Virus record (IMG/VR): IMGVR_UViG_2595698513_000001
Location: 30,745 to 94,744 of that record
Direction: 5' to 3' (one strand)
DNA: 64,000 nucleotides
Source: a virus
Lineage: Duplodnaviria > Heunggongvirae > Uroviricota > Caudoviricetes > Demerecviridae
Every line of letters starts with the position of its first letter. Position 1 is the first letter of the stretch. The position numbers and the translations under genes are program-made. Of the stretch, positions 1,742-23,076 are shown in pieces. A model generated the notes under the pieces. That model worked only from the letters and a program-made list of their open reading frames with translations. It was not told the origin of the DNA and did no database searches.

Positions 1742-2140
1742 ATGTTTTTAGACTACGAATTTTGCGAAAATAACCAAATTCTTATTGAGAAAATGTACCA
1801 TATGGGTTCTCTATTTACTGGACGTATGGATAGCGAAGTAGACGACCTAAATCGCGATTTAGATGGTTGCCAAAATCAAATTGTCATTACTGACAAAACC
1901 AAGCAATTGGCGGATATTCTAGATGAGTGTTACGAAGATAATATGGCTAATGACGATATTCTATCCCGCCTATACTCAGCAGGTTTTAATCGTGGATGTG
2001 TATTTGAGCTATCTATCACAAACCCTAGCGGTATTGGTCGTTACCTCCTATATGTATACGTAGAATCTGAGCTAGAACTAAGAGCATACGCAGAAGACTT
2101 AGCTAACCGTGTTTGGGAGAAGAGCAATGAAAGTAATTGA
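1742..2140 (+). CDS. hypothetical early protein
   Basis: ATG after early promoter 1683-1711 and conserved leader with GGAG. Confidence 0.6.
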   Translation: MFLDYEFCENNQILIEKMYHMGSLFTGRMDSEVDDLNRDLDGCQNQIVITDKTKQLADILDECYEDNMANDDILSRLYSAGFNRGCVFELSITNPSGIGRYLLYVYVESELELRAYAEDLANRVWEKSNESN

Positions 2141-2570
2141 TAGCTTTAGAGGGGAACATGCGTTCCTCTCTAATATGTTTCCAGTGGTGATTGAGCATGA
2201 CGGCATTACTTATCCTTCTAGTGAAAACTTGTATCAAGCGTTCAAAACGCCGGAAAGACGAGAGCGAAAGTTAATTGCCAAACTTCCACCAAACCAGTCT
2301 AAGAACTACTGGAAGTTTAATGCAATCAAGACACCAAACTTCCATAAAGATAAGCTAAAGTATATGGAAATAGCTCTTCGTGCTAAATTCGAAGACCCAT
2401 ACCTAGCTGCCGCTTTAATAATGGGCACAAAAGATGCCGAACTTATTGAAGGTAACTGGTGGGGCGACGGTTTTTGGGGTGTTAGTGATAAAACTGGTCA
2501 CGGACACAACCACTTAGGCAAACTATTAATGAAGATTCGAGAGGAACTTAATGGACGCACTGAAGGATAA
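2127..2570 (+). CDS. NADAR (YbiA-like) domain protein, candidate ADP-ribose-removing enzyme
   Basis: FRGEHAFLSNMFP...ENLYQAFK and WGDGFWG motifs typical of NADAR/DUF1768; RBS GGGAGAAG. Confidence 0.65.
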   Translation: MKVIDSFRGEHAFLSNMFPVVIEHDGITYPSSENLYQAFKTPERRERKLIAKLPPNQSKNYWKFNAIKTPNFHKDKLKYMEIALRAKFEDPYLAAALIMGTKDAELIEGNWWGDGFWGVSDKTGHGHNHLGKLLMKIREELNGRTEG

Positions 2571-2778
2571 ATTAATAGAGAATCCAAAGCTTCAATGTGG
2601 TGTAGGTCTAGCATCTGCTACATCAGAAGAAATAGAAGAAATGTGTGATTGGCTAGCAGTGCGTGGTATTCCTTATGTGCACCAAACCACACATCTAAAA
2701 ACAGGTAAGCCGTTACCGAAAAATGGCTTACTTATTATCAATATTATTGGAGTAAAGAATGCTAAAAATTTACACTGA
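2551..2778 (+). CDS. hypothetical protein
   Basis: ATG overlapping upstream gene end; coding-like composition. Confidence 0.45.
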   Translation: MDALKDKLIENPKLQCGVGLASATSEEIEEMCDWLAVRGIPYVHQTTHLKTGKPLPKNGLLIINIIGVKNAKNLH

Positions 2779-3217
2779 TGGAGCATGTCGTGGCAACCCT
2801 GGGGTAGGTGCTTGGGCTTTCGCTGTTTTTGAAGGCTGGGCTAAGAAAGGTACTAAAAGTGCTGCTATGCCACACACTACAAACAATGAGGCTGAACTTA
2901 CAGCCATTGTTAAAGCGTTAGAATGGGCGATTCGTGCCAACCTAACCGAAGTAGAAATCCTAACCGACTCTAACTATGCTTGCCAAGGTTATAAGACATG
3001 GATGCATGGTTGGGTTAAGAAAGGCTGGGTAACAGCAGGTGGAACTCCAGTTAAGAATCTAGAACTTTGGAAGACATTATATAATATTTCTCAAAAAATT
3101 GATGTCACCATGACAAAAGTTAAAGGTCACTCTGGTGATGAAGGTAACGAGTTGGCAGATACCTTGTGTAACTGTGCAATAGACGAGTGGGAACTCGAAA
3201 ATGTGGTGATGAAATGA
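2759..3217 (+). CDS. rnhA: ribonuclease H
   Basis: IYTDGACRGNPGVGAWAF, TNNEAEL, LTDSNY, VKGHSGDEGNELAD RNase H motifs. Confidence 0.85.
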   Translation: MLKIYTDGACRGNPGVGAWAFAVFEGWAKKGTKSAAMPHTTNNEAELTAIVKALEWAIRANLTEVEILTDSNYACQGYKTWMHGWVKKGWVTAGGTPVKNLELWKTLYNISQKIDVTMTKVKGHSGDEGNELADTLCNCAIDEWELENVVMK

Positions 3218-7229: not shown

Positions 7230-7303
7230 TGCGAGAATGGAGAAATGGCGTCTTGCGAGTTTCATAAGCTCGATAACGTGGGGTTCGAATCCCCATCTCG
7301 CAT
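7230..7303 (+). tRNA. tRNA, anticodon CAU (Met or Ile2)
   Basis: Acceptor TGCGAGA/TCTCGCA; anticodon stem CGAGT/GCTCG; loop TTCATAA; T-loop GGGGTTCGAATCCCC. Confidence 0.7.
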
Positions 7304-7312
7304 CCAAACATT

Positions 7313-7386
7313 GCGCGTGTAGCTCAGTTGGTTAGAGCATCTGACTTTTAATCAGGTGGTCGGTGGTTCGAGTCCACCTACGCGCA
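7313..7386 (+). tRNA. tRNA-Lys (UUU)
   Basis: Cloverleaf; loop CTTTTAA; T-arm GGTGGTTCGAGTCCACC; CCA follows. Confidence 0.85.
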
Positions 7387-7390
7387 CCAT

Positions 7391-7463
7391 ACACCGGAAG
7401 ACAGATGGATTGGTCGTCACCCTTTCAAGGTGGAGTTTGCGGGTTCGAGTCCCGTCCGGTGTA
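7391..7463 (+). tRNA. tRNA-Glu (UUC)
   Basis: Anticodon stem TCACC/GGTGG; loop CTTTCAA; T-arm GCGGGTTCGAGTCCCGT. Confidence 0.8.
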
Positions 7464-7472
7464 CCAAATTTC

Positions 7473-7545
7473 GGGGAATTAGCTCAGTTGGGAGAGCAGG
7501 GTCTTTGCAAGGCTCAGGTCATCGGTTCGAGTCCGATATTCTCCA
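7473..7545 (+). tRNA. tRNA-Ala (UGC)
   Basis: G3:U70; loop TTTGCAA; T-arm ATCGGTTCGAGTCCGAT. Confidence 0.85.
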
Positions 7546-7636
7546 CCACTTTCATGAAACAGGTACGCGCTAGCCTGGATTATTTCTGACATAATTAGAA
7601 ATGTTAGGGTAATTAAAAGTATGCGCACAATTTTCT

Positions 7637-7710
7637 AGAGGCTTGGCTGAGTTGGTTATAGCGACTCCTTCATGCGGAGTAAGACGGGGGTTCGAGTCCC
7701 TCAGCCTCTA
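7637..7710 (+). tRNA. tRNA, anticodon CAU (Met or Ile2)
   Basis: Anticodon stem ACTCC/GGAGT; loop TTCATGC; T-arm GGGGGTTCGAGTCCCTC. Confidence 0.75.
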
Positions 7711-7719
7711 CCAAGAACA

Positions 7720-7797
7720 ATGCGGTTGTTTGAGTCCACTATACTTGTGTGATATAAGATTAATTCTAGGAGAAAACTGACTCGACCTAGAGCCGCA
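7720..7797 (+). other. non-canonical tRNA-like element, possibly pseudo-tRNA
   Basis: Ends TGCGGTT / AGCCGCA plus CCA pair as an acceptor stem; interior lacks canonical D and T arms. Confidence 0.3.
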
Positions 7798-7805
7798 CCA
7801 AACAT

Positions 7806-7892
7806 GGTTGAATGCGACGAATTGGTAAGTCAGCGGACTGTAAATCCGTAGCCACCGAGAGGGGCATCTAGGTTCAAGTCCTAGTTCAACCA
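7806..7892 (+). tRNA. tRNA-Tyr (GUA), class II
   Basis: Loop CTGTAAA; long variable arm; T-arm CTAGGTTCAAGTCCTAG. Confidence 0.8.
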
Positions 7893-7901
7893 CCAAATTT
7901 A

Positions 7902-7974
7902 GGGGAATTAACTCAGCGGTCAGAGTGGCTGCCTGTTAAGCAGCTGGTCGTAGGTTCAAATCCTACATTCCCCG
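7902..7974 (+). tRNA. tRNA-Asn (GUU)
   Basis: Anticodon stem GCTGC/GCAGC; loop CTGTTAA. Confidence 0.85.
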
Positions 7975-7983
7975 CCAATTTAT

Positions 7984-8058
7984 GCGGCTGTGTGCGAGAT
8001 GGTTTAGGCAACCTCCCTGTCACGGAGGAGTACGTGGGTTCAAGTCCCATCGGTCGCG
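7984..8058 (+). tRNA. tRNA-Asp (GUC)
   Basis: Anticodon stem CCTCC/GGAGG; loop CTGTCAC. Confidence 0.8.
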
Positions 8059-8067
8059 CCAAATAAA

Positions 8068-8143
8068 CGGGGTGTAATGTCAGTCTGGTCAGACGGCTCG
8101 CTTTGGATGCGAGAGGTCGTAGGTTCGAATCCTACCTCCCCGA
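8068..8143 (+). tRNA. tRNA-Pro (UGG)
   Basis: Anticodon stem CTCGC/GCGAG; loop TTTGGAT; T-arm GTAGGTTCGAATCCTAC. Confidence 0.8.
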
Positions 8144-8482
8144 CCAATTTTACGAGAGACACTACTCTTTGCACTATAGGGTAGTCTGTAGAAGGGACGT
8201 GCAAATCCCGTGCAGCATTCTGTCTAGCATATGCAGAAGCGGTTAGGATCACATGTTTAGTAATGCTCCTTATATCAGCTGCGGCGGATAAGGTTGCCCC
8301 TTACTCGGTTAAGTCCAAAAACCCCTGTGGAATATGTAGAAGTGACCAGTGTGGGAACTGGCTTGTGGAGCGTATCTAAACCCTCACTTCCGAAAGAGTT
8401 ATCTTTTGACTGCTAGCAAGCCCATAGCTATAGACCGTGACGAAAGGCAGCTCACGGGGCAGTGCAAAAGATAATTTACAAT

Positions 8483-8566
8483 GCAGGAGTGGCGTAATTG
8501 GTAGCCGCGCTGGATTTAGATTCCAGTGGTCTTTGTACCGTGAGGGTTCAAGTCCCTCCTCCTGTA
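8483..8566 (+). tRNA. tRNA-Leu (UAG), class II
   Basis: Anticodon stem CTGGA/TCCAG; loop TTTAGAT; long variable arm. Confidence 0.8.
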
Positions 8567-8585
8567 CCAAACAAGGGAGAACGTT

Positions 8586-8954
8586 ATGGATAGTACATTC
8601 CAAGGCTACATAGGTGAAATGAAAGCAAAAGCTTATTTCGCAGCCCTAGGGTATTATGTATTTAGCGATGACTCTGGTAATTCGCCAGTAGACTTTTTAG
8701 TAATGAAAGACGGCATCGTAAAGAAAGTACAAGTAAAAAGCACCAGAGGACGCAACAAAGCAGACACTGGTTGGGAGGTACAACTAAAATCTGTACGCAC
8801 AAATAAGACAGCAAACAAAGTAAAGCACTTTGATAATACTGCCCAAGACTTCTTATTTGTTTACTTTCCAGAAATAGACAAGTATAAGCTACTTATCTCT
8901 AGCGAGATAACGCAAAAAGCCGCTATGCTAGTCAAAGATATAGAATTAAGGTAG
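8586..8954 (+). CDS. small PD-(D/E)xK-like nuclease (putative)
   Basis: PVDFLVMKDGIVKKVQVKS resembles D-(D/E)xK core; lies inside tRNA cluster where homing nucleases are common. Confidence 0.4.
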   Translation: MDSTFQGYIGEMKAKAYFAALGYYVFSDDSGNSPVDFLVMKDGIVKKVQVKSTRGRNKADTGWEVQLKSVRTNKTANKVKHFDNTAQDFLFVYFPEIDKYKLLISSEITQKAAMLVKDIELR

Positions 8955-9041
8955 GTCAATCCGAAAGCTGGCGACGGAAACTGGTTTGAACCCAGTCGAG
9001 TGTAGTGATACGCCTTGAGAGTTCGACCCTCTCACCTACCG
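8950..9041 (+). tRNA. tRNA-Ser (UGA), class II
   Basis: Acceptor GGTAGGT/ACCTACC; anticodon stem ACTGG/CCAGT; loop TTTGAAC; long variable arm. Confidence 0.7.
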
Positions 9042-9137
9042 CCAATTAGAGCACAGAGGTTCGGGTTCCCCTCTGTATGCGTATGAGTCCTGATGCTGGG
9101 CGGCTGCGGTGAAACTCCGAAGGGCAGATTAATTAAT

Positions 9138-9221
9138 GCGTACTGAAGACTGAGCGGTCGGTCACTAGCCTTCCAAGCTAGCGCCCTTAATCGGGATAGG
9201 GTTCGACTCCCTCTGTACGCT
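9138..9221 (+). tRNA. tRNA-Gly (UCC)-like with atypically long (~15 nt) variable region
   Basis: Acceptor GCGTACT/TGTACGC; anticodon stem CTAGC/GCTAG; loop CTTCCAA like E. coli Gly(UCC); discriminator U. Confidence 0.55.
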
Positions 9222-9345
9222 CCAAATTTCTGAATCTACTATATAAAGCACTAAGGTCAACGGTACAGTAGTTGGTAACGGGGTTCGAGTCCCGACTGGG
9301 GGTGTAAGAGACCCCGAGTGACGACCTAATTCAGAAAATATTAAA

Positions 9346-9374
9346 TTGCTAAACATCACGATTTAACGTATAAT
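9346..9374 (+). promoter_or_regulatory. T5-type early promoter driving tRNA-Thr
   Basis: TTGCTA-17-TATAAT; leader AGTTACATAAAGTTGAGAAACGAATC lacks GGAG and runs into tRNA at 9404. Confidence 0.65.
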
Positions 9375-9403
9375 AGTTACATAAAGTTGAGAAACGAATC
9401 AAA

Positions 9404-9476
9404 GCTTCCTTAGCTCAGTTGGGAGAGCAGCTCACTTGTAATGAGCAGGTCGTCCGTTCGAATCGGACAGGGAGCA
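9404..9476 (+). tRNA. tRNA-Thr (UGU)
   Basis: Anticodon stem GCTCA/TGAGC; loop CTTGTAA; driven by early promoter 9346-9374. Confidence 0.85.
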
Positions 9477-9498
9477 CCATTTATTTACGGAGAAGAAG

Positions 9499-9681
9499 AT
9501 GATTTATTTTAAAAATAAAGCAGGCAAAACTGGCGTTGTATCTTTTGATGATGCCGAATATGAGCTTCAAGCAGTCCAAAACCCGCAGGAGTTACACAAA
9601 GATGTAACTGTAGCTGTACGCGGTTTACCGAAAGACTGTTTACCCGCAGAGAAAACTGCTTTCTTAACCGTAGTCAAATAA
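9499..9681 (+). CDS. hypothetical small protein
   Basis: RBS GGAGAAGAAG then ATG; sits between tRNAs. Confidence 0.5.
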   Translation: MIYFKNKAGKTGVVSFDDAEYELQAVQNPQELHKDVTVAVRGLPKDCLPAEKTAFLTVVK

Positions 9682-9686
9682 ACAAT

Positions 9687-9759
9687 AGGGGATTAGCTCA
9701 GTTGGTAGAGCATCGGAATTTGACTCCGAGGGTCGCAGGTTCAAGTCCTGCATCCCCCG
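9687..9759 (+). tRNA. tRNA-Gln (UUG)
   Basis: Anticodon stem TCGGA/TCCGA; loop ATTTGAC; A1-C72 mismatch. Confidence 0.75.
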
Positions 9760-10027
9760 CCATTTTTGGGTACTAAACGTTACATATAACTATGTGGTGA
9801 AAGTAGCTTGTAACAATCCTAGGTGAATGTGCTAATACACCCTAGACCCAATATTTTATTACTCTATTGTGAACGTGCTATGTCTCACCGGAGACCGCTA
9901 ACGACGGATGTACTTACCGCTGCATTTGCAAGTAACCAGTTTCATTGTAGCATAAAGCTACCTAGTTGTAGTTATGACCGAGAATAAGCCAATATGAGGT
10001 CGGGTATAGAGAACATTAATCATTTTT

Positions 10028-10101
10028 GCAGGATTAGCTCAGTAGAGTAGAGCACTTCCCTTACAAGGAAGGGGTCGTAGGTTCAAGTCCTACATCCTGT
10101 A
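10028..10101 (+). tRNA. tRNA-Val (UAC)
   Basis: Anticodon stem CTTCC/GGAAG; loop CTTACAA. Confidence 0.8.
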
Positions 10102-10188
10102 CCATCTTTAAGCGGTTCAGCCAATAAAAGTTAGGATATATGCCCTAGCCTGCTTAAAAATGGTAACATAATAACAAAGGATGAAGAT

Positions 10189-10593
10189 ATGCAACTTGAT
10201 GAAATGCAAGCTAAATTGCTTGAAGTACGTAAAGCAGGTAACAAAGTTGGTCGTGCAGTAATGCAGTCACTTATTGCTGACTTTGACAAACAAGCACGTA
10301 CTGGTAAAGAAGTTGATGGTATGGCACTTATTCGTAAGTACCTAGACAACGCCAAAACTAACATGCAGCTAGAAGTACAGCGAAAGAACTCAGCAGGGGC
10401 TAAAGCATACGGCCTAGAAGCAGCATTTCTAGAGTCTCTATTGCCTAAGCAATTAACTGACGAACAGCTTCGTAACATTATCGAAACTGGTGACTTCAAA
10501 AACATTGGTGAAGTAATGAAGTTTCTTCGCTTCAACTACCAAGGTCAATATGACGGTGGTGTAGCTTCTAAAATTGCTCGTGAGGTTCTATGA
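10189..10593 (+). CDS. GatB/YqeY-domain protein
   Basis: LPKQLTDEQL...IGEVMKFL...DGGVASKIAREVL pattern typical of YqeY; RBS AAGGATG. Confidence 0.6.
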   Translation: MQLDEMQAKLLEVRKAGNKVGRAVMQSLIADFDKQARTGKEVDGMALIRKYLDNAKTNMQLEVQRKNSAGAKAYGLEAAFLESLLPKQLTDEQLRNIIETGDFKNIGEVMKFLRFNYQGQYDGGVASKIAREVL

Positions 10594-10820
10594 ATCCAGT
10601 AGAAGTTAAAACAAAACTTGACATTGTTGATGGTGAGTTAAAAGACCTCACCCTCAAAGCAAAAGTTCTAGCAGAACAAAAAAGAAAGCTAGAAAGTGAA
10701 AGAGCACGTCTACGAGCTATTCAACAAACAGCTTGTGACCATCCAAGAGAAGCTCGTAGTTCTGTTATGGTTAATAACGAACCCGAATACTTCTGTACGT
10801 TGTGTGGTAAAGATTTTTAG
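10590..10820 (+). CDS. hypothetical protein with C-terminal CxxC pairs
   Basis: ATGA overlap; coiled-coil plus C..C...C..C tail. Confidence 0.5.
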   Translation: MNPVEVKTKLDIVDGELKDLTLKAKVLAEQKRKLESERARLRAIQQTACDHPREARSSVMVNNEPEYFCTLCGKDF

Positions 10821-10887
10821 GGCTGAGCAGGTGGCTGCAAAGCGGATTCCAAACCCGCCTACGTAGGTTCGACTCCTACCAGTTCTG
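10819..10887 (+). tRNA. tRNA-Trp (CCA)
   Basis: Acceptor AGGGCTG/CAGTTCT with G:U pairs; loop TTCCAAA. Confidence 0.65.
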
Positions 10888-10974
10888 CCAAATACTTGTG
10901 CCTAGAAACAAAGGTTGTGAAGGGTGACAGCTTTATAAGTCTCGGGAGTAACGCACTTCCATAGGTACAACAAT

Positions 10975-11047
10975 ACTTCCGTAGCTCAGTTGGTAGAGCA
11001 AACGACCGATAATCGTTAGGTCACTGGTTCGAGTCCAGTCGGGAGTA
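10975..11047 (+). tRNA. tRNA-Ile (GAU)
   Basis: Anticodon stem AACGA/TCGTT; loop CCGATAA. Confidence 0.85.
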
Positions 11048-11051
11048 CCAA

Positions 11052-11124
11052 GTCCCTTTAGCTCAGTGGTTAGAGCGTCCTGCTCATAACAGGAGGGTCA
11101 CTGGTTCAAGTCCAGTAAGGGGCA
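11052..11124 (+). tRNA. tRNA-Met (CAU)
   Basis: Anticodon stem TCCTG/CAGGA; loop CTCATAA; T-arm ACTGGTTCAAGTCCAGT. Confidence 0.8.
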
Positions 11125-11153
11125 CCATATTGCAATAGCACAACCCCGTGCTT

Positions 11154-11238
11154 GGGCGGTGTTCGCACTAGAATCGTAGTTGGCGAACTAAGTAATAAAA
11201 ACTAGGGGATCGTAGCATCCGCCCACCAATTCTAATTA
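11154..11238 (+). other. non-canonical tRNA-like element
   Basis: GGGCGG... / ...CCGCCCACCA acceptor-like pairing plus CCA; atypical T-loop. Confidence 0.25.
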
Positions 11239-11259
11239 TAAATATCATGGAGATACTAT

Positions 11260-11442
11260 ATGAAAACAGCTAACCTACTAAAGTTCGCGTCTGAAAAACC
11301 ATTCGTTGTAAACCGTCACAAGCGTTCTCAAGAAAAGTTGCGCTCTCAGTGCCAACGCCTTGTGAAATCCGGTCGTCTAGTAGAAGTTGAGAAGACACAT
11401 GATCAAGTCATGTACCGTACTCCAGAGTCACAAACAGAATAA
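11260..11442 (+). CDS. hypothetical small protein
   Basis: ORF between tRNAs; RBS GGAGA. Confidence 0.5.
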   Translation: MKTANLLKFASEKPFVVNRHKRSQEKLRSQCQRLVKSGRLVEVEKTHDQVMYRTPESQTE

Positions 11443-11443
11443 A

Positions 11444-11516
11444 GCGGGAATAGCTCAGTAGGTAGAGCACTTGGTTGAAGACCTTGGTGTCGCTGGTTCA
11501 ATTCCAGCTTCCCGCA
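11444..11516 (+). tRNA. tRNA-Phe (GAA)-like
   Basis: Loop TTGAAGA; anticodon stem has two U-U mismatches; otherwise canonical. Confidence 0.65.
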
Positions 11517-11527
11517 CCACTAACAAT

Positions 11528-11602
11528 GCGCGATTAGCTCAGATGGATAGAAGCAGCACCCTACGAAGGTGAAGGTCTGGGGTTCGAGTCCCTGATCGCG
11601 CG
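11528..11602 (+). tRNA. tRNA-Arg (ACG)
   Basis: Loop CTACGAA; T-arm TGGGGTTCGAGTCCCTG. Confidence 0.8.
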
Positions 11603-11609
11603 CCAAATT

Positions 11610-11696
11610 GGAGAGATGCCCGAACTGGTTAAGGGAGCTCCCTGCTAAGGAGTCGGCTGCTAACGTGGTCTGTGAGTTCAAATCTCACTCTCTCCG
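11610..11696 (+). tRNA. tRNA-Ser (GCU), class II
   Basis: Anticodon stem GCTCC/GGAGT; loop CTGCTAA; long variable arm. Confidence 0.8.
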
Positions 11697-11826
11697 CCAA
11701 TTAATATCCTAGTAACCACTAGGGAGTCCACGAGAACTCATAAGGATGCTCGAAGATGTTTTATTACTTTAATGATTTCTTTCCTGAAACCGTAACTCCT
11801 GTTGCGGTCACTATAAGGAGAGAAAC

Positions 11827-12030
11827 ATGTGGCACAGACACAAACTAAGAGTTAATTGGCATCGCCGTCTTAAAGACGATGATATTGCAATTGAAAACGG
11901 TTTTACCAACCGCTTGTTCAGACAGACGGATGTATACATGTACGATTTGTCTTGGTGGGATTACCCAAGTAGAACAGTACAGCGTAGTTGGAAAAGCCAA
12001 TCTAAGAAACGAAAACAATGGGAACGCTAG
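11827..12030 (+). CDS. hypothetical small Trp/Arg-rich protein
   Basis: Strong RBS TAAGGAGAG then ATG. Confidence 0.55.
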   Translation: MWHRHKLRVNWHRRLKDDDIAIENGFTNRLFRQTDVYMYDLSWWDYPSRTVQRSWKSQSKKRKQWER

Positions 12031-12055
12031 ACGTTCCCTTTCTTGTGGAGTAAAT

Positions 12056-12604
12056 ATGAAGAAACAAATCTATCTAGCAGGGGATATGCTAAACCGTGGT
12101 GCTCAACTTCAACGAGCGGAAGAAAAACGAGATTTACTTAATCTAGGTTACGAATTATACGTACCACAAGATAATAAAGATATAAATGATAAAGAAAATC
12201 TCAACTCGAATGATGGTCTAGCAGAAAAAATTGTTCGTGCAGATACTGATGGTATCATGAATTCTGATATTGTGGTTATGGAAGCCCGTGAAGCAGCACT
12301 CGGTACTTGTATTGAGCTAGGTCAAATCAAGGGCATGAAAGACGTTGCTAAAACAGTTAAGTTTATGATACGAGCAGGGGCTAGTATCGAAGAAATCGAA
12401 GCTTACATGACTGAAATCGAGAATAAGCTTGTACTAGTTCACAACTCGGATATTCGTCGTGCAGGTAATCCTACAGAAACAGGGGATAGACGTAGCTATG
12501 GGCCACACCAGTATATGTATGGTGTAGTGCTGGATGTTACTAACGGTCATGGTTTTTATGATTGGGGCGAGATTACATACATTCTAGATAAAGGTAACGT
12601 GTAA
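12056..12604 (+). CDS. nucleoside 2-deoxyribosyltransferase-like (Ndt/Rcl fold) protein
   Basis: IYLAGDML...ELYVPQ...SDIVV...AALGTCIELG resembles YLAGP.F / D.GT..E.G Ndt motifs. Confidence 0.55.
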   Translation: MKKQIYLAGDMLNRGAQLQRAEEKRDLLNLGYELYVPQDNKDINDKENLNSNDGLAEKIVRADTDGIMNSDIVVMEAREAALGTCIELGQIKGMKDVAKTVKFMIRAGASIEEIEAYMTEIENKLVLVHNSDIRRAGNPTETGDRRSYGPHQYMYGVVLDVTNGHGFYDWGEITYILDKGNV

Positions 12605-13236
12605 TGGATTTGTTTCAAAAGATTTGGGCAGCATTTGCTGTCCTATTAGTAGCTCTAGCGTGTGTTATTTCTGGGGCTGATTTATTTGTATCTACTTTAT
12701 CAATGGTAGGTATTCTATTCGTACTCGGTGTTTCGTTTAAGAAACCTGAATCTCAACTACTAGGGGCAGCTTTCTGTGGCTTCCTAGCCTATGCTTCCTT
12801 TGGGGCAGGGTTCTTTGCCAACGCCCTGGTTAATGGAGCATTTCTTCTTCCTGCAACTATATTTGGTTATTTCTATTGGAAACGGCGAACGGGCGCAGGT
12901 AATCTTGAGCGTAGTCTAAGTAAAACTCAGTTCATGCAAATGAGCACTGCTATAGCTACAGCTACGATTATAACATTTTTCTTTACAATAGGGGCTGGAG
13001 GAGCATTACCTTTACTAGATGCTTTCACTGCGGTGTTACCTGTAGCAGCTACCCTATTAATGATTGGAGCCTATAGAGACCAATGGTTACTATGGATTCC
13101 TTACAACGCGATACAAGCCTTTATGTGGTTTACCGCCGCATCTTTGCAACCTGCGGTACTGGCGGTATTCGTTGTTAAATTAGTATTCTTAATCAATTCC
13201 CTGATTGGATATTATTATTGGAGAAAAGAGGCGTAA
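12604..13236 (+). CDS. pnuC: PnuC-like nicotinamide riboside transporter
   Basis: ~7 TM, 210 aa, Trp-rich helices; WLLWIPYN and YYYWRK tail as in PnuC; ATGG overlap. Confidence 0.6.
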   Translation: MDLFQKIWAAFAVLLVALACVISGADLFVSTLSMVGILFVLGVSFKKPESQLLGAAFCGFLAYASFGAGFFANALVNGAFLLPATIFGYFYWKRRTGAGNLERSLSKTQFMQMSTAIATATIITFFFTIGAGGALPLLDAFTAVLPVAATLLMIGAYRDQWLLWIPYNAIQAFMWFTAASLQPAVLAVFVVKLVFLINSLIGYYYWRKEA

Positions 13237-13250
13237 GCCTCTTTCTTTAA
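13227..13250 (+). terminator. rho-independent terminator
   Basis: GAGGCGTAAGCCTC then TTTCTTT. Confidence 0.6.
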
Positions 13251-13258
13251 AGTTTTAT

Positions 13259-13287
13259 TTGCTAAACTCTCTTATTTCACGTATAAT
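13259..13287 (+). promoter_or_regulatory. early promoter TTGCTA-17-TATAAT
   Basis: Preceded by terminator 13227-13250. Confidence 0.6.
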
Positions 13288-13318
13288 TATTATATAAATT
13301 AATGAGAGAGGTTATCAA

Positions 13319-13579
13319 ATGATTGAATGTTGGGAATGGGCAGAAGTTGCTGCACACATTTTAGGTCTTCCAGAAGAAACTGACGAAGAAGTTGTAGAAC
13401 ATCATCTACTCCAAGAATACGGTCTAGACTTGGAAGGTTTTGGCAATATTGCCGATAAACTCCTTAGCATGACCGCGCCTATTGAGACTTCCATCGCTGG
13501 TTCAGTTGTACAGGCTTTTGTTAAGTTCGAAGACACACATGTACGAGCATTAGTTAAGAAGGACTTCAAAATTGATTAA
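13319..13579 (+). CDS. hypothetical acidic protein
   Basis: After promoter 13259-13287. Confidence 0.55.
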   Translation: MIECWEWAEVAAHILGLPEETDEEVVEHHLLQEYGLDLEGFGNIADKLLSMTAPIETSIAGSVVQAFVKFEDTHVRALVKKDFKID

Positions 13580-13719
13580 GTTATCTCTAGAACAAGCAGA
13601 AGTAGCATTAACTCTTTTAAATGATATTGAAGAAGAAAAGGGTACTTTACTACCACAGGAAGAACAGCTTCAAGCATACCTAGACGCAGCCATTGATGCT
13701 GAAAAAGATAAAAACTAAA

Positions 13720-13748
13720 TTGCTAAACTGCTGAGAAATCTGTATAAT
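13720..13748 (+). promoter_or_regulatory. T5-type early promoter plus conserved leader
   Basis: TTGCTA-17-TATAAT; AGTTCCATAAAGTTGAGAAACGGAGATTGTTATG. Confidence 0.7.
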
Positions 13749-13779
13749 AGTTCCATAAAGTTGAGAAACGGAGATTGTT

Positions 13780-14085
13780 ATGAAAAACGTAGTTATCAGT
13801 GAAAGCCTATTTAAAGCAATGATGGAGCAGTTAAGTTACTGGGCTGATTATTGTGACGACTCGGAAGGCTATCTAGCTGCTCTTATGGATGAAGTTCAGG
13901 AAGTTGCTAGTACTAAGGAGCCTAGAACTATAGGTTTATTCGATAAGCTACCAGAACCTACTTCTACGGAAGATGTAGTTATCCAAGGTACAGGTACTTT
14001 ACAGAAAGTTTGGAAAGTATCAGATGCAACTCCTCGTGGAAAAGCAGACAAAGTATTCGTATGGAAACTTGTGGGTATTAGTTAA
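13780..14085 (+). CDS. hypothetical early protein
   Basis: After promoter 13720-13748 plus conserved leader. Confidence 0.6.
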   Translation: MKNVVISESLFKAMMEQLSYWADYCDDSEGYLAALMDEVQEVASTKEPRTIGLFDKLPEPTSTEDVVIQGTGTLQKVWKVSDATPRGKADKVFVWKLVGIS

Positions 14086-14093
14086 AATTAAAT

Positions 14094-14167
14094 GGGTAGT
14101 AAGCTGAAGTGAACGAAGCGCGGGATTGCAAACCCCGTCTTACTCGGTTAAAGTCCGAGACTACCCT
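14094..14167 (+). tRNA. tRNA-Cys (GCA)
   Basis: GGGATTGCAAACCCC anticodon arm; discriminator U; T-loop TTAAAGT. Confidence 0.75.
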
Positions 14168-14183
14168 CCAAGGACTTATTGGT

Positions 14184-14257
14184 GTGACGTTGGCTGATGT
14201 GGAAATGGCTCCGGGTTGTGATTCCGGAAGATGCGGGTTCGAACCCCGTACGTCACC
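14184..14257 (+). tRNA. tRNA-His (GUG)
   Basis: Anticodon stem CCGGG/TCCGG; loop TTGTGAT; T-arm GCGGGTTCGAACCCCGT. Confidence 0.7.
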
Positions 14258-14286
14258 CCAATAAGTCTTTACTAAAGGAGATAACG

Positions 14287-14481
14287 ATGATTAAGAAAAT
14301 CATTAAACGTAACAAACAAAAATTCACTGCCATCTTTAAAGAAGGTCGAACTATGTTCCCTCGTGGTGAGTTTCACAATATTACATACCTAGGTGAATCA
14401 AACGGAAATAGTTTGTTCCGTGCTGATGAAGGTTTTGCATACAAAGGCATGACTTTCTGTAATGAAGCTACCTGGTCTTAA
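14287..14481 (+). CDS. hypothetical small protein
   Basis: RBS AAGGAGATAACG then ATG. Confidence 0.55.
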   Translation: MIKKIIKRNKQKFTAIFKEGRTMFPRGEFHNITYLGESNGNSLFRADEGFAYKGMTFCNEATWS

Positions 14482-14491
14482 ATAAACAAAT

Positions 14492-14565
14492 GCGCCCTTA
14501 GCTCAGCTGGATAGAGCACGTCCCTTCTAAGGATGTGGTCGTAGGTTCGAATCCTACAGGGCGTG
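14492..14565 (+). tRNA. tRNA-Arg (UCU)
   Basis: Loop CTTCTAA; T-arm GTAGGTTCGAATCCTAC. Confidence 0.85.
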
Positions 14566-14583
14566 CCATCTTTGGAGAAGATT

Positions 14584-14748
14584 ATGTTTACACTATTCGT
14601 AGTATGGCTTGTATTCCAAGGAATAACCTGTACTGCACTATCTGATTGTAAAAGTGAAGATATGTGTAATAAAATCATGTGGATGCCAACAGTAGTACGT
14701 TGGATTATCTTTACTGTCCCATCCCTAATTGTATGGGCTAATAAATAA
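14584..14748 (+). CDS. small membrane protein
   Basis: RBS GGAGAAG then ATG; hydrophobic 54 aa. Confidence 0.45.
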   Translation: MFTLFVVWLVFQGITCTALSDCKSEDMCNKIMWMPTVVRWIIFTVPSLIVWANK

Positions 14749-14752
14749 CAAC

Positions 14753-14836
14753 GCTGGCGTGGTGGAATTGGTAATACACGTGGGACTTAAAATCCCATGC
14801 CCTAGAGGATTGAGAGTTCGAGTCTCTCCGCCAGTA
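14753..14836 (+). tRNA. tRNA-Leu (UAA), class II
   Basis: Anticodon stem TGGGA/TCCCA; loop CTTAAAA; long variable arm. Confidence 0.8.
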
Positions 14837-14857
14837 CCAAATTCCTAAAAACTTGAG

Positions 14858-17969: not shown

Positions 17970-20477
17970 ATGGGATTTGGCCCAGCCTATGGTACTGGTA
18001 GGGGCGGTGGTGCAGTTGACATTTTCACAAAGAAAGATGGAAACCCTGCCATATTCGCCAACACTGGTGCTAGAGACACATATTTTACATCAAACCCAGA
18101 TGAATTAGCGAAAGTTAAATCTTCTGGTGATGCAGTTGCTATTGGTACAGCTAACCAAATTACAGCAGCTTACGTATATAAACAAAACGCGTGGCAACCT
18201 ATTGCTACTAACTTCAAAGGAGATAAAGGTGCTCCAGGTACTCCTGGCGATGGTATTGATTACAGCCATCTTACTCAAGGACAAATTCCTAAATGGGACG
18301 CGACTGCTAAGAGATTTACTAATTCAGGTGTTACTTCGAAAGAAGATGGCTCGATTACCCTAGAGCCTGCATCATTACATCTAGGCTCACATTCTATTTC
18401 AAGTAGTGCAGAAAACGTAACATTCACTAACGTAGTTACAAATAAAGTGTACGCCCCTTTATGGCAAGAAGTAGGTTACGGTACTAAAACAGGGTACATT
18501 AGGTCACATGGACCAAGACTTGAGGTAGAGCTAGAAACAGATAACAGTAAAGATTTAGTTAACCCTTTCTTCAACTATACAGCACCTGCCGATGCTTCTT
18601 TATTTGGTGCTAAAATAGAAGTAGCTCAAGATGCTACCAACGTAGAAGTGCATGTACTCCTAAATAACGAAGAATTGTGGTTAGCTAGATTAGGGGATCT
18701 ATCTGCTGGAGAACAGGATATTTTCTTCACAAACCCAGCAGACTTTAAAGCTGGTAATACCTATGATGTTAGGGTGGCTAGCTCTGATGGGTCTGATGTT
18801 ATACTTAAAGGTAGTCAGTATGACACCCCAAAAGCTACGTTACATGTAGCTAAATGGACAGACGAGATAGTAGCTTCTCAAGAATGGTTAAAAACCCTAA
18901 AATTAGTAAATGACATTACATTAAGTGGTGATCAGTTCAGTTTTACAATGCTGGATGGTACTAGTAAGACTGTTACACTACCTGTTGGAGGTTCGGCTAA
19001 AGCGGCACCGTACAACTTTATAGAGTTGTTAACAGATAGGGGCATCTCAGTATCCGAACTGACTAACTCTACTCCTATTTTTAGTTTTGAAGAAGATACT
19101 TCTATTACTCTTACAATGCCTGCTACAAGTACTCTTCCGGTAGGTCGAGATAGTGCATTTATAGTAGAAAATAGGACTACTACACCCGCAGCAGTAGTAG
19201 AAGTAAAAGCAAGTAACACAGATATAGTTAATAGGCCTGGACTTACTTCTTTCAATGTGCCTACCAACCATACCATACTATTTGTAAGCAACGTAGCAAG
19301 CAACTCCTGGCATGCAATAGTGCTGGCCTCTGGTGGCACCGGTGGTTCTAGTTTGAACGAGGGGCAAGTAGTAAAAGCTCTAGAAACTACATCTAGTGGT
19401 AAAGACTTACTTGTACGCTACTACGACGATACCAGTTCTACCCTTACGTTCAACCCATGGGTAGACGATATTGCCAAACTAAATAAAGCTGTATCTGACT
19501 TAGAAAGACACCTAAAAAACAAAACTAAGTTTTATGTATATAAAGGTGATACTATACCTACCGATGTGCCTAGAGGCTCTCGCGGAGGGTACTACTTTAC
19601 TTTCTATGGTACAACTTCTGAGCTAACTCTCACAACCCCTGTAACAGCTAGTAAGATTAGTGATGGTACTATATTATTCATAGATAATAATTCACCTGAT
19701 TATTCTGTAACAGTAAACACACCGCAAGGAGAGACAATAGCAGGGCAGGCCTCTGTATCTATAGCTCCTGAAGCCGCCGCATGGTATGTTAGAAATGACA
19801 ATAACTGGCAGGAATTATACTCTGGATTTTTACCGCGCTCCCACAAAGATCTTATTAACGAGATGAAGGCGTTAGTGAGTGCTGATAATAACTTTATTCG
19901 TAACTTAAATGTACAGAGTGACGATCCTACCCAAACTGCTGTAGCTGCTACTTCATTGGAATTCAAAGGGTTTGACGTTACCACTCCTGCTGATGATACT
20001 ACAAAAGGTATTATTAAGTTCAAAGGGGCTACATTCGAGAACCCTGATGGTAGTAAAGTAGTTACAGATGTATTGAAACTTGTTGGTATGGAGGTTGTTG
20101 ATCCAGGCGATGGTACACCACCAAAACTAATGTTAACTGGTGGAGCGTTACCTTTACCACACCCAACTAGCGCATATGCATTCTTTGATGCAGCTGCTAC
20201 GGTACCAGATACAGTAGACTTCACTTCATTAACTAAGTTTACTAACGGTAAGGTTACAGTTACTAAATCTACTGCTGACCCTCAATATGTGTATATTCTT
20301 ATTCCTGCTGCTGAAGGGGCAGGGGCTGACCGTATTGGAGAGCAAGGTGGACTACCTGCATTCTGGGATAAAAGCTCTAAAACTTATACCGTCAATGGAC
20401 AGAGTGAAACATTCACAGTGTTCCGTTCTCCTTACCCACTAAAAGAGCAGGACGTTACACTAATAATTTACCATTAA
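17970..20477 (+). CDS. tail-fibre-like large fibrous protein (835 aa)
   Basis: Gly/Thr/Ser-rich; collagen-like GDKGAPGTPGDG; no signal peptide. Confidence 0.5.
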   Translation: MGFGPAYGTGRGGGAVDIFTKKDGNPAIFANTGARDTYFTSNPDELAKVKSSGDAVAIGTANQITAAYVYKQNAWQPIATNFKGDKGAPGTPGDGIDYSHLTQGQIPKWDATAKRFTNSGVTSKEDGSITLEPASLHLGSHSISSSAENVTFTNVVTNKVYAPLWQEVGYGTKTGYIRSHGPRLEVELETDNSKDLVNPFFNYTAPADASLFGAKIEVAQDATNVEVHVLLNNEELWLARLGDLSAGEQDIFFTNPADFKAGNTYDVRVASSDGSDVILKGSQYDTPKATLHVAKWTDEIVASQEWLKTLKLVNDITLSGDQFSFTMLDGTSKTVTLPVGGSAKAAPYNFIELLTDRGISVSELTNSTPIFSFEEDTSITLTMPATSTLPVGRDSAFIVENRTTTPAAVVEVKASNTDIVNRPGLTSFNVPTNHTILFVSNVASNSWHAIVLASGGTGGSSLNEGQVVKALETTSSGKDLLVRYYDDTSSTLTFNPWVDDIAKLNKAVSDLERHLKNKTKFYVYKGDTIPTDVPRGSRGGYYFTFYGTTSELTLTTPVTASKISDGTILFIDNNSPDYSVTVNTPQGETIAGQASVSIAPEAAAWYVRNDNNWQELYSGFLPRSHKDLINEMKALVSADNNFIRNLNVQSDDPTQTAVAATSLEFKGFDVTTPADDTTKGIIKFKGATFENPDGSKVVTDVLKLVGMEVVDPGDGTPPKLMLTGGALPLPHPTSAYAFFDAAATVPDTVDFTSLTKFTNGKVTVTKSTADPQYVYILIPAAEGAGADRIGEQGGLPAFWDKSSKTYTVNGQSETFTVFRSPYPLKEQDVTLIIYH

Positions 20478-20490
20478 GGAGTAAATATAT

Positions 20491-23076
20491 ATGACAACAA
20501 TAACTGTAGGTACTCCAGTTACCGCCCCGATTACTCCGGGGCGTGATGACTCTAATGTGTGGCCTACCCATATTGCAAAATACGGTAAAGGCGGTTTTGA
20601 AGTAGTAGACGCTATCCAAGACCGCGACTTAATTACCGACGAAAGACGAGAAGATAAAGCAGTACTAGTAAGGTCTGCTGCAAACGGTAAACCAGCACTA
20701 TTCGAATATTCTAATGGTAACTGGAATGAAATCCCATTAGAAGGTGGTTCTAGTAACGGCATGACCTTTAAGGACGACCTCTTTACCACCGATAATGTTG
20801 ATACTGCTACATTCGAGAGCTCTTCCGTAAAAGAGATTAATGATGCAGGTACTAGCGTGTCCGTTACGCCATTCACTACCTATACTGATGAGCGTACTAG
20901 CGGAACTACTGACGAAGGCGGACAAACCTACGTTCCAGTACGAGCTAATAAAGTATCCCTAATGTCCCCATTACAAATGTTCTCAGACCCTAATGAGGAA
21001 TTAGGTGTAGTAATGGAAATTCAGCATGACGCATTCGAAGCTAAACGTGCTGACGGATATTTAGCATATATTGGCTACCCTATTGAGATTATCGCACAAC
21101 CAGAAGCAGAGAATTACCATGCTAAGGGTAAGATATGGCCTACCGACTTAGTGGTAGATAGTCAAGGTACTTCCATTGCTATCAATAAAGCACAGAAAAC
21201 CGTGGGTATCCAAGAAGGTGATAACCTAGACCCTAACGTTACAGGCGGGGCTGACTTCCTAGTAGCATATCGCATATCTCTAGCAGGTGTTGCGCCAAAC
21301 GAAGGTAGAGTTCGCATCTATCTAGCTCAAGGACAGCAGTTCGATGAGTCTTCTGATATTGTAGTAGATGTCGACGGTCAAGCACTAGCAGCAGAAAAAC
21401 ACTATAAAGCAGGCGATACTCTAGGGGACTTGGAAGTAGTTGGAGTACTAAATGCCAAAGGCTTAACAAACCTAACAATGCACGTAGTACATACATTTAC
21501 TACTGATAATATCATGATTAATGAGAGGGCTAAAGGAATCTCAGGTATTATGGTTCAGGCTCTTGACGAAAACAGTAAGACAGGTCAAGCACTAGTACAG
21601 TACGAGTTAGATACTAGACAAGTTATTGAGTTCTCTAGAGAATGGCTTGGTCAGAAGAGAATGAGCTTTGACAGTGTAGTAAATCATGACTCTAAAAGAC
21701 AAACCGGAGCAGCCGGACAGGGTATATCTCTAGCAGATGGGTTGCATTTTTATAACCCACACCCTGCGGCAACTGAAGTAAAAGATGGGCAATTAATCAT
21801 TAGTGATGATGGCTCTAATATCTGTGACTTTAGCTTAGGTAAGTTCTTCAGTACAGCGGAAACAGTAGCTCTGCGTGGCAAACAAGTAGACGTTACACTA
21901 GAGGTTAATAATAGCACTAACGGCTGGAACTTGTATCTATTAAAATGGACAGGAGCTCCAGACAAGTACACCAAAGAACTCTATAAAACTAGAGATGGCG
22001 GTGGTATGCCTATTTGGGAAGATGGTTGGGGTGTAAGTGACGTTAAGTTTATTTCAGAAGATATTACATCAGGAACACACGCAGTAACCAAGACGTTTAC
22101 AGTACCACAAGATGCTAATAACTACGCTGTAATAGTTGCGCCAGTTGAAGCCGAAATCCCAATGACTCTTAAGGTATCCAAGTTCGAATTAGATGTAGTA
22201 AATCCATTCTATATGTATGAGATGTACCAATCAAATAAGTTAGACGAAGTACACTTGAGAGCCAGCGAAGAGTTCCTAGAAACTATCCAAGATAACCAAG
22301 GACTTGGTGGGCTTAGATATACTATCAATACTGCTGCGGATGGGCTGCCAATGCCTTGTGGTAAAATCCATAAAGGTAGAGCAGACATTACTCTAGATAG
22401 TACAGTAAATACTGTTGCTGGTTCTGGGGCTAGTGGTGGTGAGGGTGCTCTTAAGTTCATGGCAGAAGGTACGGCTACTATTAATACAGAACTACGTATC
22501 TGGTCTGAACAAGCTAAGGGTACTAACTCTGTAGTAACTTTCTGGTGGGTTATTATTGCAGCCAATGGAACAGAGTCTAAGATACTTAAATCGGAAACTT
22601 CCTTTAATATTCCTGGTGGTTCTCAAGCAGTTTACACCATGAAGCCTTTCGACCTGCTAGTAGCTCCTGGTGATAGAATTGCTCTTAAAGCATCTGCTGA
22701 CAAAGCTGACGGTGCCTTCATTGAGTCTGTGTCCCCAAGCAAACCAATGGTAGATGTTAAAATCAACTTCAAGGAGTTACTGGCTACAACAGCAGATGAC
22801 CCGCTATCTGGACTGGATTTAAGTGGCTTCGATGATGTGTTACAAGCGCCAATAATTTTAACTAAGACTGTTGTTAACAGAAGCTCTATAGATATTCCTT
22901 TCGAAGTACCAGATGGGGCGGACTTAGTAGTACTTGGTGCAGTAAAAGAAGCAGTTTCAGGGATTATTGAGCCTGTAGACGACTTACATTACTCTTACAA
23001 TACTATTACAAATATATTAACTGTTTCCTTTGGCGAAGTAGCCACGGTACAGCTAACTTTAGGTCTTTACATGTAA
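20491..23076 (+). CDS. tail-fibre-like large fibrous protein (861 aa)
   Basis: Beta-rich T/S/G/N composition typical of fibres or receptor-binding proteins. Confidence 0.5.
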   Translation: MTTITVGTPVTAPITPGRDDSNVWPTHIAKYGKGGFEVVDAIQDRDLITDERREDKAVLVRSAANGKPALFEYSNGNWNEIPLEGGSSNGMTFKDDLFTTDNVDTATFESSSVKEINDAGTSVSVTPFTTYTDERTSGTTDEGGQTYVPVRANKVSLMSPLQMFSDPNEELGVVMEIQHDAFEAKRADGYLAYIGYPIEIIAQPEAENYHAKGKIWPTDLVVDSQGTSIAINKAQKTVGIQEGDNLDPNVTGGADFLVAYRISLAGVAPNEGRVRIYLAQGQQFDESSDIVVDVDGQALAAEKHYKAGDTLGDLEVVGVLNAKGLTNLTMHVVHTFTTDNIMINERAKGISGIMVQALDENSKTGQALVQYELDTRQVIEFSREWLGQKRMSFDSVVNHDSKRQTGAAGQGISLADGLHFYNPHPAATEVKDGQLIISDDGSNICDFSLGKFFSTAETVALRGKQVDVTLEVNNSTNGWNLYLLKWTGAPDKYTKELYKTRDGGGMPIWEDGWGVSDVKFISEDITSGTHAVTKTFTVPQDANNYAVIVAPVEAEIPMTLKVSKFELDVVNPFYMYEMYQSNKLDEVHLRASEEFLETIQDNQGLGGLRYTINTAADGLPMPCGKIHKGRADITLDSTVNTVAGSGASGGEGALKFMAEGTATINTELRIWSEQAKGTNSVVTFWWVIIAANGTESKILKSETSFNIPGGSQAVYTMKPFDLLVAPGDRIALKASADKADGAFIESVSPSKPMVDVKINFKELLATTADDPLSGLDLSGFDDVLQAPIILTKTVVNRSSIDIPFEVPDGADLVVLGAVKEAVSGIIEPVDDLHYSYNTITNILTVSFGEVATVQLTLGLYM

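Follow-up and report, generated by a model that had tools for sequence, protein, structure and literature searches.

All NADAR proteins that have been tested biochemically, across four recognised families, remove ADP-ribose (ADPr) from guanine (G-ADPr) in DNA, and some phages use such a protein against a toxin of the host. Gene gp040 of Vibrio phage pVp-1 is described here as a probable further member of this group of counter-defence factors. The gene lies near the start of a 64,000-nucleotide stretch of phage DNA (IMG/VR record IMGVR_UViG_2595698513_000001), termed the window, in which position 1 is position 30745 of the record. A first-pass annotation, made from the sequence of the window, had proposed that gp040 encodes a NADAR-domain protein and that reversal of guanine ADP-ribosylation is a plausible counter-defence.

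The phage T4 protein gp30.3 (AdfN) strips DarT1-made ADP-ribose from DNA, and T-even phages thereby grow on hosts that carry DarTG1 (Johannesman et al., 2025, PMC11825919). The unrelated phage NADARs AdfN-Bas60 and AdfN-Bas32 (the latter encoded by T5-like phages, Bas32 and Bas33) also neutralise DarT1 and restore plaquing of phages RB69, T5 and Bas25, but neither works against the thymine-specific DarTG2 (Johannesman et al., 2025, PMC11825919). Bas32 is Escherichia phage IrisVonRoten (BASEL paper), and the AdfN-Bas32 gene was located by tblastn as bas32_0066 (QXV80247.1, MZ501075:61641-62090). YbiA and T4 gp30.3 hydrolyse G-ADPr in vitro, yet cells that have either enzyme alone are not protected from DarT1. 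YarT, an ADP-ribosyltransferase that is not a DarT, has a YbiA-like NADAR as its antitoxin. The authors of the AdfN study anticipate that other ADP-ribosylating defences are countered by some phage NADARs, and they find only one phage NADAR close to the YbiA group (Johannesman et al., 2025, PMC11825919).

The families differ in their catalytic residue, which is Glu in the families termed NADAR and YbiA, Asp in DarG1 and His in the T4 enzymes. Those of the Glu type remove both G-ADPr and cytosine-linked ADP-ribose (C-ADPr), from DNA and RNA, whereas the Asp-type DarG1 and the His-type T4 enzymes remove G-ADPr only. In the NADAR of Phytophthora nicotianae (PnNADAR), ADP-ribose is held by E43, K50, E125, D130 and W133, with K75 and R79 close to the pyrophosphate (Schuller et al., 2023, PMC11543638). 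In DarG1 of Escherichia coli C7, both guanine de-ADP-ribosylation and rescue from DarT1 depend on E88 (mutant E88Q), K95 and D171; catalysis is intact without K115, yet rescue in cells requires it (Schuller et al., 2023, PMC11543638). The corresponding Glu of SCO5665, E167, is essential, and its mutation abolishes activity. Pathogens in which DarTG1 is prevalent include Vibrio cholerae (Schuller et al., 2023, PMC11543638).

gp040 is a member of the NADAR family

Over its first 8 kb the window matches Vibrio phage pVp-1 (JQ340389 / NC_019529) at 100% identity, beginning at position 30745 of that genome. pVp-1 is a T5-like virulent siphovirus that infects V. parahaemolyticus and is placed in Demerecviridae, Ermolyevavirinae, Vipunavirus. 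The gene and its putative ribosome-binding site are:

2115-2119, + strand: Shine-Dalgarno-like GGGAG, 7 nt 5′ of the gp040 ATG and within the 3′ end of gp039, as read from the sequence
2127-2570, + strand: NADAR-domain gene gp040, candidate AdfN-like nucleic-acid de-ADP-ribosylase, 147 amino acids plus stop

The open reading frame (ORF) runs on the + strand from ATG at 2127 to TAA at 2568-2570. The first-pass annotation had delimited it exactly, and its coordinates are those of the RefSeq coding sequence F404_gp040 (YP_007007863.1), which is labelled 'hypothetical protein'. The three motif strings that had been quoted from the translation, FRGEHAFLSNMF, SENLYQAFK and WGDGFWG, are all present in it.

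At the profile level, gp040 matches the Pfam NADAR family PF08719 with E = 3.8e-17 and 63.5 bits, where the gathering score is 35.1; the alignment spans positions 10-162 of the 163 in the profile. The family claim thus stands. It also matches the PHROG family phrog_1017, of unknown function (E = 4.5e-43), and E. coli YbiA (PDB 2b3w; E = 1.3e-12 by phmmer and 1.7e-34 with the family profile). gp040 is thus a genuine member of the NADAR family with the NADAR fold.

More specific assignments were considered and rejected. The score against the YbiA-type riboflavin N-glycosidase model (NCBIfam TIGR02464) is 52.2 bits, below the curated cut-off of 73.7, and the genomic context does not point to riboflavin: the 147-amino-acid protein is a single domain without RibA or RibD fusion, and its neighbours are ribonucleotide reductase (RNR), NrdG, RNase H and small ORFs, with no riboflavin genes nearby. 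The DS-32 NADAR anti-phage protein model (NCBIfam NF053876) gives 54.2 bits against a cut-off of 240, a likeness at the superfamily level only. For the T4-type phage NADAR family (gp30.3, Pfam PF08010), the Pfam search at E <= 1 reported only PF08719, and BLASTP to T4 gp30.3 gives 24% identity over 53 amino acids (E = 0.03). Identity with DarG1 was set aside, as gp040 is without a toxin neighbour, has Glu instead of Asp as the catalytic acid, is without the N-terminal extension and shows 9% identity.

In phage records, gp040 and AdfN-Bas32 relatives carry the labels 'GTP cyclohydrolase II', 'swarming motility protein YbiA', 'N-glycosidase', 'ADP-ribosyltransferase', 'glycosylase' and 'antitoxin-like enzyme'. 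This systematic mis-annotation of phage NADARs deserves to be put right; 'GTP cyclohydrolase II', for one, has been carried over from the annotation of fusion proteins.

Active site and predicted structure

An AlphaFold2 model of gp040, computed from an alignment of 52 homologues without the Bas32 sequence, has a mean pLDDT (predicted local distance difference test) of 92.8 and a pTM (predicted template modelling score) of 0.87. In a Foldseek search of the PDB at E <= 0.001, the model matches only YbiA (TM, template modelling score, 0.84) and PnNADAR with bound ADP-ribose, 8BAU (TM 0.78). Overall, the structural matches of this high-confidence model are confined to the three NADAR structures that have been solved. 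Residues were mapped by profile alignment to 8BAU and by a cross-family alignment, the PDB chain numbering being that of the paper +2. The active-site features that result are as follows:

2220-2246, + strand: motif S32-E33-N-L-Y-Q-A-F-K40; E33 corresponds to PnNADAR E43, EcC7 (E. coli C7 DarG1) E88 and T4 E36, and K40 to PnNADAR K50, EcC7 K95 and T4 K43; predicted contacts to the distal ribose and pyrophosphate
2301-2303, + strand: codon of K59, which the alignments equate with K115 of E. coli C7 DarG1 and K75 of PnNADAR
2445-2480, + strand: motif I-E108-G-N-W-W-G-D114-G-F-W117-G; E108 is the predicted catalytic acid (PnNADAR E125, SCO5665 E167, position of C7 D171), and D114 (PnNADAR D130) and W117 (PnNADAR W133) are predicted pyrophosphate contacts

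In addition, K63 of gp040 aligns with PnNADAR R79 in the alignment to 8BAU. gp040 therefore has every catalytic residue that the mutagenesis and crystal structure work of Schuller et al. (2023) defined, and by these residues it appears to be catalytically intact.

The same positions are conserved among relatives. E33, K40, K59, E108 and D114 are invariant among the 52-53 closest homologues of gp040; E33 and K40 are so in both the 53-sequence and the 11-sequence alignments, and K59 in the 52-sequence family alignment. S15, E33 and K40, which line the substrate channel (compare SCO5665 S69, E87 and K94), are invariant in the family (52-53 sequences) and cross-family alignments.

The K59 position deserves attention. 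In the cross-family alignment gp040, AdfN-Bas32 and PnNADAR have Lys there, YbiA has Ala and T4 gp30.3 has Gln. The Lys is thus present in AdfN-Bas32, which rescues cells, and not in YbiA and the T4 protein, which do not when phage is absent; this correlation, over three proteins, is the sole indirect indicator of in-cell action for gp040.

Comparison with characterised NADARs

AdfN-Bas32 of Escherichia phage IrisVonRoten (T5-like, Markadamsvirinae) is a validated anti-DarT factor NADAR, and like gp040 it is a stand-alone protein of about 147-149 amino acids from a Demerecviridae phage. The two are 34% identical over 143 amino acids (E = 3e-19; 65.5 bits). Both have the Glu-type active site, the signature IEGNxWGDxxWG and a Lys at the position of C7 K115. 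gp040 is placed here with AdfN-Bas32 in one broad group of stand-alone NADARs of the Glu type. Both genes adjoin that of RNase H and lie between RNR genes and an exonuclease gene, in the T5-type early region of replication and nucleotide metabolism. The differences are that the RNase H proteins of pVp-1 and Bas32 are 46% identical, above the 34% of the NADARs, and that the flanking small ORFs belong to phrog_4593 in Bas32 and to phrog_18867 and phrog_13465 in pVp-1. Activity has been demonstrated for AdfN-Bas32, whereas gp040 is known here from its sequence. The closest relatives of gp040 (at most 47% identity) and of AdfN-Bas32 (at most 51%) are bacterial and archaeal stand-alone NADARs, from Planctomycetota, Clostridia, Streptomyces and methanogens, which are nearer to each of them than they are to each other.

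YbiA (PDB 2B3W), a YbiA-type NADAR and riboflavin-intermediate N-glycosidase, is the product of a chromosomal gene in a LexA-controlled operon, and cells are not rescued by it from DarT1. It differs from gp040 in the Ala at the position of K59 and in the motif VEHTENDAYWG, which is one residue shorter. DarG1 (E. coli C7; Geobacter lovleyi, PDB 8BAT) is more distant, at 9% identity to gp040. It has an N-terminal extension (219 amino acids), Asp as catalytic acid and a gene that adjoins that of DarT1, and it removes G-ADPr only, whereas gp040, of the Glu type, is an orphan that consists of the core domain alone.

AdfN-T4 (gp30.3, of the PF08010 'phage NADAR' family) is, as gp040, an orphan NADAR of a phage, and the E-x6-K spacing is kept (T4 E36 and K43; gp040 E33 and K40). 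Counter-defence against DarTG1 has been demonstrated for the T4 protein, which works only in the context of T-even phages. Its similarity to gp040 is barely detectable, the catalytic acid is at another position (His type according to the literature) and Gln stands at the K59 position. When T4 AdfN was used as a query against plasmids, as a route to a DarG1/DarT1 locus, one unrelated match, from Euzebya, was obtained.

Proposed function and mechanism

By analogy with these systems, gp040 is probably a stand-alone NADAR glycohydrolase that is made early in infection and erases ADP-ribose placed by a host toxin, e.g. DarT1, on guanine in single-stranded phage DNA, i.e. a counter-defence factor of the AdfN type. 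The suggestion of a plausible counter-defence by reversal of guanine ADP-ribosylation is thereby supported; for the phage NADARs AdfN of T4, Bas32 and Bas60 it has been demonstrated, and for gp040 it would follow by analogy. The proposed role would concern marks of the DarT1 type, on guanine, and not those of the DarT2 type, on thymine.

The mechanism may be envisaged as follows. Soon after entry of the DNA, gp040 would be made from the promoter-like element at 1683 (see below), while a host ADP-ribosyltransferase such as DarT1 would modify guanines in single-stranded phage DNA and block replication. gp040 would grip the ADP-ribose through K40, D114 and W117, at the pyrophosphate, and through E33, at the distal ribose. 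E108 would then catalyse hydrolysis of the N-glycosidic bond between the ribose and N2, the exocyclic amine of guanine. With the release of ADP-ribose a replicable template would be regained, and gp040 would thus act as an orphan antitoxin. Given the Glu-type active site, gp040 may remove cytosine-linked ADP-ribose as well and act on RNA.

Genomic setting and expression

The gene is part of a compact block on the + strand, other members and control elements of which are:

1683-1711, + strand: promoter-like TTGCTT-17 nt-TATAAT, 5′ of gp039, the probable start of the unit that holds the NADAR gene
1742-2140, + strand: gp039, 132 amino acids, function unknown; first gene of the unit, with a 14-nt overlap with the NADAR start; no Pfam match; phrog_18867
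2551-2778, + strand: gp041, 75 amino acids, function unknown; 20-nt overlaps with the NADAR end and the RNase H start; no Pfam match; phrog_13465
2759-3217, + strand: RNase H gene (Pfam RNase_H, E = 1e-37), downstream in the same block
3401, 3899, 4234, 7010, 9346, 13259, 13720, 14858, 26469, 31185, 34344 and 42716, + strand: copies of TTGCTA-N16-18-TATAAT, that at 3401 being the first downstream of gp040

The element at 1683-1711 is similar to early promoters of T5, of which PN25 (-35 TTGCTT, -10 TATAAT) is an example. Its near-identical form TTGCTA-N16-18-TATAAT, a phage-specific promoter-like element with the same similarity to T5, has 12 copies in the window, all on the + strand, where 0.12 copies are expected by chance. 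Most of these copies run on as TTGCTAAA and many have CGTATAAT; they are placed between small early genes and tRNA genes. With its overlapping genes, the five-gene block behind the T5-type early promoter looks translationally coupled. The placing of gp040 among early genes in the first-pass annotation thus finds support in synteny and promoter type, and the assignment as an early gene is well supported by inference.

In the Vibrio phages pVp-1, VF16, Ceto and JSF10, which represent three genera, the gene order is nrdG, a variable gene, NADAR, a small ORF and RNase H; in the coliphages it is RNase H, a small ORF and NADAR. The gene that precedes NADAR is not an obligate partner, as a PhoH-like gene takes the place of gp039 in Vibrio phage JSF10. 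A small ORF is present at the position of gp041 in all Vibrio T5-like phages examined (VF16, Ceto and JSF10), and gp041 has weak homology to JSF10 gp115 (36% over 44 amino acids, E = 8e-5). It is the fastest-evolving gene of the block, with a ratio of nonsynonymous to synonymous substitution rates (dN/dS) of 0.32 relative to Ceto. gp041 could be a partner of the NADAR protein or an unrelated anti-host protein.

No ADP-ribosyltransferase is annotated in the part of the pVp-1 record examined; the immediate neighbours gp039 and gp041 are without Pfam domains, and the next genes encode NrdG and RNase H. gp040 is therefore an orphan NADAR without a cognate toxin beside it. The bacterial and archaeal relatives are similar in this respect. 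Clustering of the ORFs within 3.5 kb of the 80 closest relatives, by all-against-all BLASTP, revealed no conserved partner gene, the commonest neighbour family, antisense artefacts aside, being an ABC ATPase at 10 of the 80 loci. These relatives thus also appear as stand-alone NADARs, and their context is uninformative on function.

Within the 5′ coding end of the NADAR gene, 6 nt past the gp039 stop codon, there is a 12-bp stem (TTAGAGGGGAAC ATGC GTTCCTCTCTAA) at 2146-2173, followed by a T-rich tail. This may be a chance occurrence, an attenuator or an element of translational coupling.

Selection, distribution and exchange

Relative to Ceto, gp040 has a dN/dS of 0.10, which indicates purifying selection and a functional protein. 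The dN itself is 0.156, about 9 times that of RNase H (0.018); the value for NrdG is 0.022. The NADAR is thus constrained yet fast-evolving.

At a threshold of >= 60% identity, tblastn finds the NADAR in 52 phage records and the RNase H also in 52, the records being compared as totals, without one-to-one pairing. The equal counts suggest that the gene is found throughout the pVp-1/Ceto lineage. The Bas32-type NADAR was found in 98 records among roughly 450 enteric T5-like records with RNase H.

Between pVp-1 (2127-2570) and VF16 (L001 3626-4069), the NADAR gene has a synonymous rate (dS) of 0.011, and the flanking genes have dS values of 0.2-0.39. This suggests a recent recombinational exchange of the NADAR segment alone between the pVp-1 and VF16 lineages.

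Alternative explanations

Several points weigh against a role of gp040 in countering DarT1. YbiA and T4 gp30.3 are active in vitro without protecting cells, so that fold and catalytic residues by themselves are no guarantee of counter-defence. gp040 is about as near to E. coli YbiA (35% identity, 58 bits) as to AdfN-Bas32, and a neighbour-joining tree is star-like, with pVp-1 and Bas32 grouped apart from YbiA in 52 of 100 bootstraps; orthology of gp040 to AdfN-Bas32 is therefore not claimed. The gene also lies on the other side of RNase H than that of the coliphage Bas32, and the two need not derive from a single ancestral acquisition. PADLOC models gave no match to gp040. The occurrence of DarTG1 in Vibrio is taken solely from the literature statement on V. 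cholerae. Finally, the apparent near-constancy of the gene in Vibrio T5-like phages would also fit a role in the biology of the phage itself.

It is possible, although unlikely, that gp040 performs the same chemistry against another enemy, i.e. a transferase other than DarT (pierisin/ScARP-like, YarT-like or an undescribed Vibrio defence) that acts on DNA or RNA, perhaps with cytosine among its targets. E108 is of the Glu type that is found in the families removing both G-ADPr and C-ADPr, the pairing of a YbiA-like NADAR with YarT offers a precedent, and the authors of the AdfN study expect phage NADARs of this kind; the apparent constancy of the gene in Vibrio T5-like phages would fit a widespread threat specific to Vibrio. 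But no such Vibrio defence was identified here, a related phage protein has been studied in cells against DarT1 only, and the proposal differs from the best explanation solely in the identity of the transferase. A rather unlikely elaboration would make the NADAR, in place of an occasional accessory against DarT1, a fixed part of a conserved early module of Vibrio T5-like phages, NADAR/gp041/RNase H, in which it removes ADP-ribose from guanine and cytosine, possibly also in RNA, against a widespread undescribed Vibrio defence, or in which gp041 serves as a specificity partner, much as T4 AdfN needs T-even factors.

Other proposals take gp040 away from nucleic acids. Degradation of small soluble ADP-ribose derivatives, such as immune signals of the cyclic ADP-ribose type, ADP-ribose 1″-phosphate or by-products of RNA repair, was proposed by Iyer et al., and the lineage does invest in metabolism of NAD+ and ADP-ribose: pVp-1 encodes a nucleoside deoxyribosyltransferase and a transporter that resembles PnuC, and VF16 also has genes resembling those of nicotinamide phosphoribosyltransferase (NAMPT), phosphoribosyl pyrophosphate (PRPP) synthetase and RNA ligase. 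Yet the proposal is older than the biochemistry, and the NADARs tested since then all act on base-linked ADP-ribose in nucleic acids, three phage NADARs countering DarT1. Moreover, gp040 is neither fused to nor next to Macro, SLOG, Nudix or DUF4326 domains, and K59, a residue tied to DNA or to a DarT1-related function rather than to catalysis, is conserved. We consider this explanation improbable. Highly improbable is a role as a YbiA-like metabolic N-glycosidase, in which gp040 would destroy reactive intermediates of the riboflavin pathway, or some comparable damaged metabolite, within the nucleotide-metabolism module of the phage. The TIGR02464 score below cut-off, the lack of a RibA/RibD fusion or of riboflavin genes nearby, the Ala of YbiA in place of K59 and the placing of only one phage NADAR near the YbiA group by Johannesman et al. 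all speak against it, as does the evolution of the protein, which is fast relative to its neighbours and unlike that of a housekeeping enzyme. A part for the NADAR in a pathway of NAD+ reconstitution was likewise rejected, since the cluster of NAMPT-like and PRPP-synthetase-like genes of VF16 is not in pVp-1 and in VF16 itself lies tens of kilobases from the NADAR gene.

Counter-defence by guanine de-ADP-ribosylation remains the best-supported interpretation of gp040. It gives a testable function to a 'hypothetical protein' of pVp-1 that in many relatives goes under the wrong name of 'GTP cyclohydrolase II', 'swarming motility protein' or 'N-glycosidase'. No new concept is involved, since publications of 2023-2025 already describe both mechanism and class; gp040 adds a further member, with a function that we infer. 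If this function is correct, AdfN counter-defence would reach from coliphages to marine Vibrio phages, and phages of V. parahaemolyticus, V. harveyi and V. cholerae would be constantly exposed to guanine-ADP-ribosylating defences (DarTG1 or similar). Since phages like pVp-1 serve in aquaculture to combat vibriosis, the interpretation would bear on phage therapy and biocontrol, with the presence of the gene predicting host range on DarTG1 strains.

Other features of the window

Further features noted in the window are:

7230-14839, + strand: 22 tRNA genes (ARAGORN), all on this strand, among small ORFs
12056-13236: adjoining genes of a nucleoside 2-deoxyribosyltransferase family protein (PF05014, E = 2.5e-9) and a PnuC-like transporter of nicotinamide riboside/nicotinamide mononucleotide (PF04973, E = 1.2e-26)
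17970-20477 and 20491-23076: ORFs of 835 and 861 amino acids (gp075 and gp076), no Pfam match
31401-32648: 415-amino-acid protein with an SPFH/Band 7 domain (PF01145, E = 2.3e-8), function unknown

None of the tRNA genes is in the returned pVp-1 RefSeq feature table over this stretch. In coliphage Bas30, PnuC together with a NadR-like enzyme constitutes the NAD+-restoring counter-defence NARP3; PnuC of pVp-1 has a different partner and may represent a variant pathway. The relative VF16, which is 95% identical, has at L086 15520-24329 a cluster annotated as encoding RNA ligase 2, nicotinamide phosphoribosyltransferase, a phosphatase, ribose-phosphate pyrophosphokinase, a phosphoesterase, an ATPase and an RNA ligase. 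pVp-1 is without this cluster, the corresponding place being after about 34343. The cluster looks like a NARP1-type NAD+ reconstitution module joined with RNA repair.

The genes gp075 and gp076 follow a 'tail protein' gene and are not found at the corresponding place in VF16; they could encode host-range (fibre-like) proteins or form an accessory module. The SPFH/Band 7 domain protein is unusual in a virulent phage.

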